Shown: positions 1 through 63,868, counted from the first letter of the whole stretch. The stretch: DNA of 63,903 bases, filler included, from Reclinomonas americana ATCC 50394 (GCA_048213135.1; 5 parts of 2 records of this genome joined end to end with filler, not necessarily neighbours in it); one strand, 5' to 3'. The notes: a model not told the origin generated them from the letters alone. A program made the numbers and translations.

Positions 1-1742
1 AAGAGGGAGATGTGACAGGCGCACAAGTGCTGACAGTGTCGCGTGACAGATGAGATGAGCAAGCCGTACACGCCCACGTGGGTGGAGCCGGAGCAGCGTG
101 GTATTGCCGATGGTGGGTGTCATGACTTTTTCTTTATTCCTCGTTCTTCTGGCTGACGCGCACGCAGCCACTGGCACCGATATCAAGCTGATTCGCCGCA
201 TTCACCTGATTGGCGAGCTCACCAAGGGCCGCTGCTCGATGTTTGGCATGTGGGGTGATGCCACGGAGGATGGACGGTTGCTGCAGCTCCGTGCACTTGA
301 TTGGGATGCTGATGATGAGTGCCAGGGCGGGGAACGGGGTGAAGGGGAAGGGGAAAGGAGGGAGGGGAAAGGGAGGGAGGGGGGAGGGAGGGAGAGAGCA
401 GAACAGAGAGTGATAGAAATGTTTAAGAACGGTCGCGAGGGTAGAGGGGGGAAGAGAGAGAGAGAGACCTGTGAGAGAACGCAAGAGGGAAAATGAGAGC
501 AACGGCGGAGACAGAATGCGAAAGGAAAAATTATGGAGCGACGGAGTGTGCGTGTGAGAAGAAACTGCCCTGCGGTGCTGACGTGATTTTGTGTGTGACG
601 ATGCACGTCCGTTCCAGGACTACCCGGTGGTCGTGGTCTATCATCCGGATCCGGGCTTCGGCTTTGCGTTTGCCAATGTTGGATGTGAGTAATTACCAGT
701 CGCTTTGCTTTATCGCCTCCTCTCTATACGTATCTCAAAGGAGGGACGCACGACAGGGTCTGGCTGGATCGGCAGCATCACCGGCTTCTCGTCGAATCAG
801 CTGGCTATCAGCGAGATTGGTGTGTACTTTAGCGACGAAACGTGGGGCGACGAGTCGTACTTTGGCGTGCCGTTTGTTGTTGCGTATCGTCTTCCCTTAT
901 CCCACACGCGCACCTCTTCGTGCTGCTCATGTCTTTCTTTGCTGCAGTACCTCCTGCGCAACATTCTTCAATTCTCGTACACGGTCGACGACGCCGCGTC
1001 GTACATGGCCTCGGTGCAGCGCACATGCCGCCTGCTCCTCGGTGTGGGCGATGGCAAGATGGGCTACTTCCGCGGCTTCCAGTACTCGCACTCGGTCCTC
1101 AACGAGTACGACCCGCTCAATCTGGAGCCTCTGTACGACTGGTTTGTGATCGCAATACACATCTTTGATTCACATGCCGCCTCGTTCTCACTCATTCCGT
1201 GCGACACAGGCATCCACGAATCAGTTGCGCCTGTTATTCAAGCCTCGTTTTGTCGCGATGCATTCTCACTTCCCTTCTTCTTCTTCCGCAATTGTCACGC
1301 ACAGACAACACGGTGTACTGGTGAGCGGATTGCGAAAGAGTCTTTTCGCGCAACACACTCACTTTTATTGAGCGCAGGGGAATGGACTGGCTGTGCCCCG
1401 GCTACAACAAGCGTCTGGCGCAAGAGATCAACAGCAAGTGGGGCCACGTGACGCCGGAGAACACCATCAGCGACATTGTCGCGTACACGGCCACTGGTAA
1501 CCTGCACGTCGCCGTGTACGACCTGACCAACCAGGCCATGTATGTGGCCAACGCACGCGGAACGACCGAGTCCGGCAACGAGTGGGCCTACGAGCGTCAG
1601 TACGGTGAGCGATCGAGAGAGAGAGAGAGAGAGAGCAGCAAACGACGATCTCATTTTCCTCGTCGTCTGCACAGTGTTCTTCGACATGGCCAAGCTTTTC
1701 GCCGAGCCGCGCCCGAAGCTGCCGACGCTGTTGGCGCAGTAA
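1..1742 (+). CDS. Acid-ceramidase-like Ntn hydrolase (Dictyostelium dcd1-type), paralog 1, multi-exon, 5'-truncated by the window
   Basis: Spliced translation reads ...RRIHLIGELTKGRCSMFGMWG...LRALDWDADGPFQDYPVVVVYHP...GWIGSITGFSS...GMDWLCPGYN...YTATGNLHVAVYD; putative N-terminal nucleophile Cys in GRCS; stop TAA at 1740-1742. Family assignment is from motif recall. Confidence 0.75.
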
Positions 1743-2356
1743 CTCACTCGCAAGGGAGAAATGAAAAACCACGGCGGTGAGGTTATGTTGCGACTATGCG
1801 AAACAAGATCACATGTGGTCGGAGGGGGTGAGTGGCTGCTGCGGAGACTCGATCTCTCTTCATCCACGTGAGCATCAGATACATTGGAGGGAGCGGAAGT
1901 ACCGTCGTTTGCACTTGCAAGAGAGACGTCAGCAGCGAAACAAGCATCGCTTGTGAAGCAGATGGTTAGTTGCAGGCGGAGCGCGAGTGGAAGAAGTATG
2001 CTGGCGGCCTCGCAAGAGAGGGGAATTACGCTGGAACTTCGACAAGGAAATACAGTATCGATGTCGCGTAGAATGCTGACTGCATGTGGCAGGCGGGCAT
2101 GGGAAAATGAGGAGGAGAAGTACAGCGCAACCTCGCTTCGTGCAGCAAGTGCGTGCAATGGAGAGAGAGACTTCGACAGAGAAACAATATCGCTTTTAAA
2201 ATGCTGATAATTTATTGCAGGCGGCGTGGGGGGAGACTCGAGGAAGAAAGTACGCTGCTATCTCACTTCGTGCAGCACATGCAAGAAAGAGTGACGGACT
2301 TCGAACAACATGTCCCTCAGCACATTGTCCAAAAAATCACTCACTCGCCTCTCATC

Positions 2357-60829: not shown

Positions 60830-60993
60830 GTGCATTTTCGCGATCACACGCACAATGAGAGAGAGAGAGAGAGTATGTGACTGTCTTCTCTTGNNNNNNN
60901 NNNNNNNNNNNNNNNNNNNNNNNNNNNNNNNNNNNNNTTAATTAATTAANNNNNNNNNNNNNNNNNNNNNNNNNNNNNNNNNNNNNNNNNNNN

Positions 60994-63868
60994 TTACGAC
61001 ATGGCGTCGTACGGTGCGCCGGCGGCCTACGGTGCCGCTCCGGTCGCCTACGACATGTCTGCGTACCCGGCCGAGGATCCCTACGCCGCGTCTGGCTACG
61101 CCGCGGCTCCGGCCGTGTACGGTGCGCCGCTGGCTGCGTACCCGTCACCACCACCTGGCCCGGCTGGCTACGGTGCCCCGGCCGGTGGCGCCGGTGGTTA
61201 CGGCGCACGTGCGCCGGCTGGCGGCAGTGCTGGACGGTACCACCCGTACCGAGGATGAGGGGAAAGTTTCGTCACCCATTTCACGCAGTGTGTCGTCGGT
61301 TGTTATTCGTAGCGGAAAAATCAGAAAGCAGTGTGTTTGTNNNNNNNNNNNNNNNNNNNNNNNNNNNNNNNNNNNNNNNNNNNNNNNNNNNNNNNNNNNN
61401 NNNNNNNNNNNNNNNNNNNNNNNNNNNNNNNNNNNNNNNNNNNNNNNNNNNNNNNNNNNNNNNNNNNNNNNNNNNNNNNNNNNNNNNNNNNNNNNNNNNN
61501 NNNNNNNNNNNNNNNNNNNNNNNNNNNNNNNNNNNNNNNNNNNNNNNNNNNNNNNNNNNNNNNNNNNNNNNNNNNNNNNNNNNNNNNNNNNNNNNNNNNN
61601 NNNNNNNNNNNNNNNNNNNNNNNNNNNNNNNNNNNNNNNNNNNNNNNNNNNNNNNNNNNNNNNNNNNNNNNNNNNNNNNNNNNNNNNNNNNNNNNNNNNN
61701 NNNNNNNNNNNNNNNNNNNNNNNNNNNNNNNNNNNNNNNNNNNNNNNNNNNNNNNNNNNNNNNNNNNNNNNNNNNNNNNNNNNNNNNNNNNNNNNNNNNN
61801 NNNNNNNNNNNNNNNNNNNNNNNNNNNNNNNNNNNNNNNNNNNNNNNNNNNNNNNNNNNNNNNNNNNNNNNNNNNNNNNNNNNNNNNNNNNNNNNNNNNN
61901 NNNNNNNNNNNNNNNNNNNNNNNNNNNNNNNNNNNNNNNNNNNNNNNNNNNNNNNNNNNNNNNNNNNNNNNNNNNNNNNNNNNNNNNNNNNNNNNNNNNN
62001 NNNNNNNNNNNNNNNNNNNNNNNNNNNNNNNNNNNNNNNNNNNNNNNNNNNNNNNNNNNNNNNNNNNNNNNNNNNNNNNNNNNNNNNNNNNNNNNNNNNN
62101 NNNNNNNNNNNNNNNNNNNNNNNNNNNNNNNNNNNNNNNNNNNNNNNNNNNNNNNNNNNNNNNNNNNNNNNNNNNNNNNNNNNNCCAGCGTATCCCGGGT
62201 ACGCGGCTACTGGTGGCGGAGCACCGTAGGGAGCTCCCGACGAGCGCGGGCCATACGCCACGCCACCACCGCGCGGCGCACCACGGCCGCCGCGGTAGTA
62301 GTCGCGATCTGTGGGGGGAGAAGGAGGAGAAGGAGGTTAGCAACACATATGCACAAGCACACGGGGCACACATAATCGATCAACGAGCCTCCCTCACCCT
62401 CGCGATAGCCACCGCTGCCGCCGGCACCACCAGCACCACCACCACCGTAGCCACCGCCGTAGCCACCGCCATACCCGCCACCGTAGCCACCAGCATATGG
62501 CGGCGGTGCGTATCCGTAGCCGTAGCCGGCGTAGGGATCCTCGTAGCCACCGCGAGGGTACTGATCGCGGCCACCGGGGCCACCACGGCCTCCACGCGGC
62601 GGTCCAGGGAATCGCGGCTCAGCTGCGGAACAGGGGGCGAGGTGAGAAGGGGGAAGGGAGGAGAAGGGGGGAAGGGAGGGAGGAAGGGGAGAAGGGAGGG
62701 GGGGAGGAGGAGGAGGAGGAGGNNNNNNNNNNNNNNNNNNNNGAGAGGGAGAGGGAGAGGGGAGAGGGGAGAGAGAGAGGGAGAGGGAAGAGGGAGACGG
62801 CAGGAGGAGAGAGAAGAGATGAGAGGAGAAGGAGAGGGAGAGGAAGAGGGAGAGGAAGACGGCGAGGAAAAGAGCGGCGAAAAGCAGGGATTAAGGGAGA
62901 GTGCAATAGAGAGCGCAGGACAGGGACAAGGGGTGGGAGGAGAAGGGAGGAGAGGGAAAGGGAGAGGAAGAGGAAGAGGGAGAGGGACAGAGAGAGGCAG
63001 ACAAACCTCGCTTGCACTCGCACTGCTTGCCGTCAATCTCGAATGTGCCCTTGTTGATGACGCTGTCCACAGTCGCCTCATCGTCAAACGTCACAAAGCA
63101 GAAGCCGCGCGGCTTGCCAGTCTCGTGATCACGCATGATCTGCACCGAGGTCACCGGGCCGTACTTTTCAAACACCGACCGCACCGTGTCTGCACAAAAG
63201 CACAAAGTCAGCAACTGACATCTGCAGAGAGAAGCACGACGGAACAGACCCTCGTTGGCATCCCACGAGAGACCGCCGATAAAGATCTTGTTCGTGCGCA
63301 GCGCGTACTGCTGGCTGTAAATCTGCTCCTTGGGCACAGCGCGCTTCACCTCAATCTGCACACAGAATGCATGAGAAGGACAAGCAACAAAAAATGAAGA
63401 AAAAGGAATGAGCGCAACTCGGCGTCCGTCCAGCAAGTGCTCCGGGTGGTTAATGATGCGCTCCAGCGTCTCGCGGTTGGCGCACTCGACAAACCCAAAG
63501 CCGCGTGGCTTGCCCGTCATGCTGTTCAACATGACCATGCCTGTGTGCGCCCACCAACAAAGAAACAACACATCAGCACGTGAGCAACACAGCGAGAACA
63601 AGTGGAAGAGTAGAATGCGAAGAGAGGAAGGAGAAAAGTGAAGAGACAATCCAATTTGGACTTGCCACTCTCCACACCCTCGTTCTCTCAAAACACAAAC
63701 GCAACAGTGTCGCAGCTCGCCAAACTTGCTAAAGTAGTCGCGCAGTTGATCTGCAAACGCGCAACTTTTGTTTAAGAGTCGCCACTCACAATAAGACTCA
63801 ACACTTGCAAAGCGCACACACACACCTTCTGTGGTGTCCCACGAGAGGCCGCCCACAAACACCTTGCT
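60994..63868 (-). CDS. Two-RRM hnRNP A/B / Musashi / Hrp1-family protein with Gly/Tyr-rich tail; final part (60994-61258) on an inverted contig; 5' end beyond the window
   Basis: KVFVGGLSWDTTE...KPRGFGFV and KIFIGGLSWDANE...KPRGFCFVTF; GGYGG tail; C-terminal GRYHPY (PY-NLS-like). Confidence 0.9.

Follow-up and report, generated by a model that had tools for sequence, protein, structure and literature searches.

Gene content of the window and two classes of donor sites

The 5' splice sites (donors) of introns were analysed in a 63.9-kb stretch (63,903 nucleotides (nt), filler included) of the genome of Reclinomonas americana ATCC 50394 (GCA_048213135.1), called the window here. It contains 33 N gaps and has a G+C content of ~57% among the called bases. 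A Pfam search on long open frames revealed genes encoding a D-lactate dehydrogenase (LDHD; 6.3-9.3 kb, minus strand), a TPR protein, a GAS8-like protein, DHX15/Prp43, a kinesin, a NACHT protein, a calpain, a large EGF/BNR-repeat protein, a kinase and an RRM protein; a pair of hydrolase paralogues (A and B) is also present, and the genes carry many short introns each. The nearest proteins in the collection, none of them from the same species, reached 68% identity for LDHD and ~75% identity across half of the query for DHX15.

The donors fall into two classes, in which a slash marks the cut. Class A, (G)/GTGNGT, has a G at position +5 of the intron and class B, N/GTTGCG(T/C), has it at +6. The first-pass annotation had described class B as the local consensus displaced by one base and, indeed, /GTTGCGT and G/GTGCGT differ in a single base. 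Introns were predicted by a dynamic-programming gene finder that relied on codon usage, GT..AG ends, a length prior and a rough scoring of branch and acceptor, but had no donor model (the donor-blind run). The gene finder is blind to microexons and in-frame introns; of 27 benchmark donors it found between 21 and 23, the number varying with the intron penalty. Owing to these misses, verified and predicted sets were counted apart. A curated set of 95 introns was compiled from completely checked genes and from gene-finder introns with good flanking exons.

The donor-blind run started 15 of 120 predicted introns with GTTGCG, compared to 1.26 expected by chance (p = 3e-12), given that 82 of the 7837 GT sites read GTTGCG; GTGCG starts equally many predicted introns (15) and GTGAG fewer (11). 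In the curated set, 27 GTTGCG donors were seen and 1.8 were predicted by a position-independent donor model (p = 4e-24), the opposite of the outcome that the first-pass annotation had named as speaking against the class. On both strands of the window the heptamer GTTGCGT occurs 41 times, next to 2 GTAGCGT, 17 GTCGCGT and 13 GTGGCGT, and relative to the local gene strand 31 copies of GTTGCGT are sense, 3 antisense and 7 ambiguous. An abundant second donor class is present in the window. Word and phrase searches of the literature found no description of such a class; subscription papers and supplements lay outside these searches, and prior print is possible.

In LDHD, DHX15 and the pair of hydrolases every intron was checked and none was picked out; of these 34 introns, 10 have a class B donor, 22 have G at +5 and 2 have neither. 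The curated 95 introns comprise 54 of class A, 31 of class B and 10 others, and 26 of 90 are of class B after removal of five hand-picked sites (four calpain, one kinesin). The share of class B, previously put at roughly a fifth or more of introns, is nearer 30% in the window, with an uneven spread over the genes (5 of 11 introns in LDHD vs 1 of 11 in DHX15). All 34 positions listed earlier carry the motifs ascribed to them (29 GTTGCG, 2 GTTGAG, 2 GTTTCG and 1 GTTGTG), and eight class B donors were found beyond that list (7157, 27703, 29348, 29588, 34921, 36193, 49566 and 59832). However, a single 266-nt tandem repeat supplies 42335, 42601 and 42862, and 43348 is the same sequence on the opposite strand; therefore, the list holds fewer than 34 independent cases. 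Five more of its sites (12027, 19645, 10426, 13000 and 40785) are weakly supported and are treated as candidate donors.

The classes also differ in the last exon base (-1). In the curated set this base is G in 42 of 54 class A introns (78%) but in 2 of 31 class B introns (Fisher p = 8e-11), and the same was found in the donor-blind run (20/26 class A vs 2/15 GTTGCG, p = 2e-4) and in the verified genes (20/22 vs 1/10, p = 2e-5). At non-donor sites, G precedes GTT in 14%, GTTG in 11.6%, GTTGC in 9.4% and GTG in 24% of the cases. Class A is enriched in -1 G over the 24% background (p = 9e-17); the 2 of 31 in class B and the one of 34 in the earlier list, where G stands at 8633 alone as had been counted, are not below background (p = 0.29 and 0.08), and, taken as a whole, the bases at -1 of class B match those found before GTTGC in the background (chi-square p = 0.19). 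Selection for G at -1 is strong in class A and absent in class B. The earlier rule that tied class B to exons with a last base other than G did not hold in this form: avoidance of G could not be demonstrated, and the scarcity of G before GTT and GTTG throughout the window accounts for much of the rule. Class A donors with a perfect GTGCGT retain -1 G (9/12 vs 2/31 in class B, p = 2e-5) and, therefore, a strong intron side alone does not abolish the preference.

On the intron side, class B is rigid. The 31 donors comprise 21 GTTGCGT, 5 GTTGCGC and five single variants; 30 of them have G at +4, 28 have C at +5 and 30 have T or C at +7. The class A consensus is G/GTG(C/A/T)GT, with A, C and T at +4 in 18, 20 and 13 of 54 donors. 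T at +7 of class B (23/31) mirrors T at +6 of class A (40/54; p = 0.49) and +7 of class B is unlike +7 of class A, where G dominates with 30 of 54 (p = 6e-7). At +3, A pairs best with standard U1, and in most eukaryotes it is the commonest base at this position or shares the lead; in the 95 curated donors, +3 is A once, G 52 times and T 39 times.

The remainder of the intron does not distinguish the classes. The median length is 70 nt in class A and 73.5 nt in class B (p = 0.28), both have branch motifs of the type CTSAY (CTCAC, CTGAC, CTCAT, CTGAT) with a median distance of 19 nt to the 3' end, C at acceptor position -3 (CAG end) is found in 45/53 class A and 27/30 class B introns, and intron phase does not differ (p = 0.46). 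A comparison of 93 intron bodies with low-complexity filtering gave no similar pair at E <= 1e-3. Long introns occur as well: a kinesin intron of 849 nt (30739-31587, minus strand; the median is ~70 nt) with a 135-nt tandem repeat of 3.2 copies inside (30927-31353), and an LDHD intron of 723 nt (7758-8480).

Junctions fixed by homologues, paralogues and profiles

For 16 class B donors the cut was fixed independently of the motif by homologues, paralogues or family profiles. The proteins are continuous across the intron at these 16 junctions, which argues for cleavage of class B introns at GU. The conserved-motif junctions invoked in the first-pass annotation, NHAYGVL in calpain, FLK/YLTDG in DHX15, YGTM/K in LDHD and GRR/IEVK in the RRM gene, were upheld.

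Three LDHD homologues, aligned to the window by tblastn, run on without a gap across the junctions at 8633, 8480, 7279, 7157 and 6719; the remaining six donors of this gene are GTTTTT, GTGCGA, GTTTGC, GTTCGT, GTGCGT and GTGAGT. DHX15 has 11 introns, one of class B (24134, GTTGAG). Three DHX15 exons lie on the minus strand in a contig between N gaps (24755-25472), with the rest of the gene on the plus strand; this contig looks as if it was inverted during scaffolding, and the same seems to apply to 4538-5011 in hydrolase paralogue B.

8627..8633, minus strand: LDHD class B donor g/GTTGCGT; FLGV/DPAPGA, homologue residues 207 and 208 adjacent; the exception with G at -1
8474..8480, minus strand: LDHD class B donor t/GTTGCGT; YGTM/KHQV, homologue residues 234 and 235 adjacent; 723-nt intron to 7758
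7273..7279, minus strand: LDHD class B donor t/GTTGCGT; PCIL/FKFTG unbroken in homologues
7151..7157, minus strand: LDHD class B donor t/GTTGCGT, beyond the earlier list; VVREI/VKRY, homologue alignment equal to the spliced model
6713..6719, minus strand: LDHD class B donor c/GTTGCGT; NFHVCI/MFNPRD unbroken in homologues
24134..24140, plus strand: DHX15 class B variant a/GTTGAGC; homologues read FLK/YLTDG; acceptor CAG/G in the apparently inverted contig, from 25472 downward

The hydrolase paralogues have kept class B donors at the same introns (879/4883 and 1224/5590), as had been reported, while their exons diverged to 66-78% identity. The codon before the 879 donor differs synonymously between the paralogues (GTT vs GTC), and a 14-nt microexon encodes HPRI in both, again with exclusively synonymous differences. 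It belongs to a conserved succession of a 14- and a 16-nt microexon (1210-1223 and 1305-1320 in A, 5576-5589 and 5667-5682 in B) which encodes ...W-HPRI-N(N/D)TVYW-G.... Two introns of paralogue B are absent from A, 4713-4776 (minus strand, GTGCGTCAA, 64 nt) and 5883-5955 (plus strand, GTGCGTCAC, 73 nt), both of class A; paralogue A is uninterrupted at the corresponding places (974-977 and about 1505), which shows, as judged from the paralogue sequences, gain or loss after the duplication.

879..885, plus strand: hydrolase paralogue A class B donor t/GTTGCGT; the paralogue alignment stops at the common GTTGCGT; also found by the gene finder
4877..4883, minus strand: paralogue B counterpart of the 879 intron, class B c/GTTGCGT; paralogue alignment; in the apparently inverted contig
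1224..1230, plus strand: hydrolase paralogue A class B donor a/GTTGCGC, after the 14-nt microexon 1210-1223
5590..5596, plus strand: paralogue B class B variant a/GTTTCGC, intron equivalent to 1224; paralogue alignment
3930..3936, plus strand: hydrolase paralogue B class B donor t/GTTGCGT; donor-blind run and curated set

In calpain, splicing at the four listed donors gave an open frame with the motifs DCFLLSA, NHAYGVL and VKNPW, which we take to carry the catalytic Cys, His and Asn. The exon before 37401 corresponds to positions 128-148 of the Peptidase_C2 profile. At 37742 the His arises from the GT..AG cut only; a cut one base downstream gives Gln. In the GAS8-like gene, profile positions 2-38 are followed by an exon of 40 residues and by positions 81-148, leaving no insertion or deletion across the junction at 21387. 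The RRM exon before 63418 covers RRM_1 positions 31-66 and ends two residues further on.

37401..37407, plus strand: calpain class B donor a/GTTGCGC; only the GA/../T join yields in-frame ...AYAKSYGSYAALDGGNVSETLYDLTG
37602..37608, plus strand: calpain class B donor a/GTTGCGT; donor-blind run, spliced model open
37742..37748, plus strand: calpain class B donor a/GTTGCGT; the CA/../T join gives the His of NHAYGVL
38046..38052, plus strand: calpain class B variant a/GTTGTGT; ...DGTFWMPFQTFCK/LFNRLYTCHL in frame; 62-nt intron with branch motif
21387..21393, plus strand: GAS8-like class B donor t/GTTGCGT; gene finder and spacing of the Pfam GAS profile
63412..63418, minus strand: RRM gene class B donor a/GTTGCGC; GRR/IEVK; donor-blind run

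Single short calpain exons gave no useful match to solved structures, a Pfam scan exon by exon gave profile anchors for some exons only, and the six loci in metagenome contigs that match the LDHD exon (best 57-58% identity, on long contigs presumed bacterial from identity and length) were not informative on introns.

Of the following donors, the first fourteen were found by the gene finder, apart from 31838, which is supported by the reading frame; the last eleven entries are candidates or sites in repeats with low scores or the motif only.

17603..17609, plus strand: TPR gene class B donor t/GTTGCGT; gene finder, flanking exon scores 17.6 and 19.5
48192..48198, plus strand: class B donor t/GTTGCGT of the large, secreted EGF-repeat gene; donor-blind run, exon scores 21 and 22
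48586..48592, plus strand: EGF-repeat gene class B donor a/GTTGCGT; gene finder, exon scores 22 and 55
49566..49572, plus strand: class B donor a/GTTGCGT, beyond the earlier list; donor-blind run, exon scores 55 and 6
49754..49760, plus strand: class B donor t/GTTGCGT; donor-blind run
27697..27703, minus strand: kinesin tail class B variant a/GTTGCGG, beyond the earlier list; donor-blind run
29342..29348, minus strand: kinesin class B donor c/GTTGCGT, beyond the earlier list; gene finder, spliced model open
29582..29588, minus strand: kinesin neck class B donor c/GTTGCGC, beyond the earlier list; gene finder; beyond the Pfam motor domain
31832..31838, minus strand: class B variant t/GTTGAGT in the first coding exons of kinesin; VNVFIRARPPAD/SKREVIV in frame; 89-nt intron
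34915..34921, minus strand: NACHT-region gene class B donor g/GTTGCGT (G at -1), beyond the earlier list; donor-blind run
36187..36193, minus strand: class B donor t/GTTGCGT, beyond the earlier list; donor-blind run
46841..46847, minus strand: class B donor a/GTTGCGC; donor-blind run
59826..59832, minus strand: class B donor t/GTTGCGT upstream of the kinase exons, beyond the earlier list; gene finder
63699..63705, minus strand: RRM gene class B donor t/GTTGCGT; gene finder and spliced model
12027..12033, plus strand: candidate c/GTTGCGT; motif only, weak coding score of the flanking frames, gene finder silent
19645..19651, plus strand: candidate c/GTTGCGT; relaxed intron penalty only, low exon scores
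10420..10426, minus strand: candidate t/GTTGCGT; upstream exon short and without coding signal
12994..13000, minus strand: candidate c/GTTGCGT; gene finder, low exon scores
40785..40791, plus strand: candidate c/GTTTCGT; motif only, N gap from 40802
41786..41792, plus strand: FG-repeat gene, a/GTTGCGT after ...FGFGG; relaxed penalty only, low scores
42085..42091, plus strand: FG-repeat gene, a/GTTGCGT after ...FGFGG; relaxed penalty only, low scores
42335..42341, plus strand: repeat copy 1, a/GTTGCGT; 266-nt tandem repeat, not independent of 42601 and 42862
42601..42607, plus strand: repeat copy 2, a/GTTGCGT; 266-nt tandem repeat
42862..42868, plus strand: repeat copy 3, a/GTTGCGC; 266-nt tandem repeat
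43342..43348, minus strand: repeat-unit a/GTTGCGT; 26 bases identical to 42601; between N gaps, may lie in an inverted contig

The FGFGG-repeat (nucleoporin-like) gene at 41263-43390 consists of tandem units of ~266 nt with a GTTGCGT intron in each; the tandem repeat proper (42304-42954) has a 266-nt unit, 2.5 copies and 75% matches, and between gaps, at 43126-43388, a unit recurs in the opposite strand. At four places in the window (15422-15521, 43389-43488, 53263-53362 and 60894-60993) paired runs of 44 N are split by 12 called bases, a pattern that looks like a masking or assembly convention rather than ordinary gaps.

Pairing with U1 and the reading of class B

A single reader that shifts its register by one base between the two classes is the explanation that we consider best, with about an even chance of being right. 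Both classes would be cut at GT by the same major-type splicing machinery. The first-step reader, by analogy the 5' end of the small nuclear RNA (snRNA) U1, would bind TGCGT alike in both classes, so that the first intron G of class B would sit at the place taken by the last exon G in class A. The later components U6, U5 and Prp8 would then cut at the sole GU, one base upstream of the cut set by the class A register. This would account for class B doing without G at -1, because the U1 base that normally pairs with the -1 G would be taken by the +1 G; the missing -1 preference is the main argument, drawn from composition, for a shift instead of a bulge.

A number of observations weigh against a shift of one common reader, and the first concern the pairing with standard U1. 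Each donor (-4 to +10) was folded with the standard U1 5' end AUACUUACCUG as given in Tan et al. 2016 (PMC4856993). Class A (n = 54) paired with a mean of -6.8 kcal/mol, in the canonical register in most cases and with an area under the curve (AUC) of 0.87 vs decoy GT sites (n = 1328, mean -2.9 kcal/mol). Class B (n = 31) had a mean of -1.4 kcal/mol, was weak in all registers and reached an AUC of 0.28, worse than random. In the canonical register it forms three pairs (+1 G with C8, +2 U with A7 and a wobble of +4 G with Psi5) plus a U-Psi contact at +3. The shifted register has five pairs with two interruptions, energies with this standard sequence being weak throughout, and the bulged-U register equals it in the number of pairs. 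Among 16 in-silico variants at U1 positions 5-6 none separated class B well (best AUC 0.72).

The remaining points concern composition and the donor set. C is much more frequent at +5 of class B (28/31) than at +4 of class A (20/54; p = 1e-6), showing that class B is not merely a shifted class A, and GTTGAG is rare (2) though GTGAG is common in class A. The base composition at -2 of class A and -1 of class B, the base preceding the G that would pair with C9 of U1, is alike (p = 0.67), but both are background-like and their likeness is weak evidence. The argument for a shift over a bulge would fail had class B introns originated without regard to the exon. An Rfam scan of the window found no RNA family at the gathering score, including no U1 or U6 gene, in this window alone. 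Finally, later rounds of the gene finder, with a donor model trained on its own output, feed part of the donor set, and the five hand-picked sites belong to curated class B.

Since C is preferred at +5 of class B, G dominates one base earlier and A is nearly absent at +3, the composition suggests that the reader pairs G and then C and hence is not of standard sequence. If U1 is the reader and shifts instead of bulging, it would pair the G at +3 of class A and +4 of class B and the C at +4 of class A and +5 of class B, and its sequence would differ from the standard ACUUACCUG. Other eukaryotes have A/G and A at these two positions. Given the rigid motif and its poor pairing with the standard 5' end, a U1 of other sequence or a second U1 is likely; a further change in U1, or a second U1 variant complementary to GUUGCGU, may be involved. 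The specific version, in which the reader is an altered U1, or two U1 variants one base apart, pairing with G and C (…ACGCA…) in two registers one base apart, is tentative and less likely than not; if true, about a third of the introns would be set by a seven-base code, GUUGCGU, within the intron and without help from the exon.

Of the first-pass proposal that register-shifted recognition is a major route, the abundant class displaced by one base stood, but the mammalian mechanism with standard U1 did not: the analogy to /GUUAAGU sites breaks down at +5, where C (28/31) interrupts the helix, and class B pairs with standard U1 worse than decoys do. What may still apply of the proposal is its alternative, a variant U1/U6 or altered protein specificity.

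An explanation that we regard as unlikely, although it fares best among the competitors of the register shift, is a dedicated reader: class B would be read by an additional U1-like snRNA, or by the product of a variant U1 gene, with a 5' end that complements GUUGCGU (…ACGCAAC…), giving two recognition systems for one catalytic spliceosome. The rigid +4, +5 and +7 positions resemble a site of full complementarity, an exon-side signal is missing and standard U1 cannot explain class B; moreover, class A donors without -1 G are not rich in GTGCGT (3/12), so the rigidity of class B is not mere compensation. On the other hand, the Rfam scan of the window found no such RNA, and the two heptamers would be nearly identical by chance, if the second reader is not a one-base variant of the first. 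Also, 3' signals and lengths are identical in both classes, unlike in the known two-spliceosome case.

Rather improbable is a bulged U: +1 G and +2 U would keep their normal register, the extra U, at +3 (or +2), would loop out and GCGT would pair as in class A. It equals the shift in pair number, keeps +1 and +2 paired, and its register was validated in human cells according to Tan et al. 2016 (PMC4856993). The donors AAG/GTGCCGT at 20950 and 25712 (plus strand), with an extra C within the consensus and -1 G kept, look as a true bulge predicts. In class B, however, a bulge would leave C9 free for the -1 G that 78% of class A donors have, yet 2 of 31 have it, which is background, and the energy with standard U1 is as weak as for the shift.

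Slightly less probable still is a historical legacy, in which an old mobile or duplicative intron gain carried the GTTGCGT end into sites without G and these working donors persisted. The missing exon-side consensus, the uneven spread (LDHD 5/11, DHX15 1/11) and the ongoing intron gain or loss seen in the two introns of paralogue B that A lacks would fit, but no pair among 93 intron bodies is similar, both paralogue-specific introns are of class A, and the heptamer is kept while the bodies diverge, which shows present selection on the motif, for which a reader is still needed. Misplaced junctions, by hand-splicing, gene-finder bias or a true cut one base off with non-GT ends, are very improbable and largely refuted: the base after the acceptor is G at 8633, 8480, 7157 and 24134, where a cut one base later gives the same mRNA, and the listed sites 12027, 19645, 10426 and 40785 have little behind them, but homologues, paralogues or profiles pin down 16 junctions, no cut other than GT..AG gives calpain its His at 37742, the donor-blind run recovers class B, and GTTGCGT is sense 31 times and antisense 3 times.

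Comparison with known systems

If the shifted reader holds, a displaced donor is a main route for about three introns in ten in the window, including those of the housekeeping genes for LDHD, calpain and DHX15, where shifted or bulged U1 pairing has been known as a rarity of human splice sites. Should this be borne out, the organism would be a natural system for studying how cleavage is separated from the helix of first recognition, and could be used to test if the 5' end of U1, regarded as almost invariant, can co-evolve with the donor consensus. A single position-weight donor model predicts 1.8 of the 27 GTTGCG donors and, therefore, standard gene finders would mis-splice about a third of the introns here; if RNA and snRNA data bear this out, gene prediction calls for caution on this account.

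Two known kinds of intron share features with class B. U12-type introns have the 5' motif RTATCCTT and the branch site TCCTTRAY near the 3' end. Like class B, they form a second class beside other introns of a gene, their 5' motif is long and rigid, and the exon side lacks a consensus; identity with them was rejected since the motif is GTTGCGT instead of RTATCCTT, and branch motif and distance, length and CAG end are those of class A. Introner-like elements are transposon-derived intron families in some algae and protists. They share with class B a common terminal sequence and a presence that varies between paralogues; an introner origin was rejected, as 0 similar pairs were found among the 93 bodies and only 7 bases are common.

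Related as well are the non-canonical registers of mammals. Shifted-register (+1) atypical 5' splice sites in mammals were reportedly described by Roca and Krainer in 2009 and are summarised in Tan et al. 2016 (PMC4856993). As in class B, the consensus is displaced by one base with GU at +1/+2 and the conserved G moved from +5 to +6, and the cut stays at GU despite the displaced helix, the cut of class B being deduced from sequence continuity at the 16 junctions. Human shifted sites pair with standard U1 in a long helix without a break, whereas the class B helix would be broken by the C at +5. The bulge +3 (or +2) registers, given after Roca et al. 2012 in the legend of Fig. 1C of Tan et al. 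2016 (PMC4856993), resemble class B in the extra U right after GU and in the intact downstream consensus. They leave C9 to the -1 G, of which class B makes no use (2/31). The validated non-canonical registers together amount, by the estimate of Tan et al. 2016 (PMC4856993), to ~1.5% of human sites; in the window, class B alone makes up ~30% of the introns.

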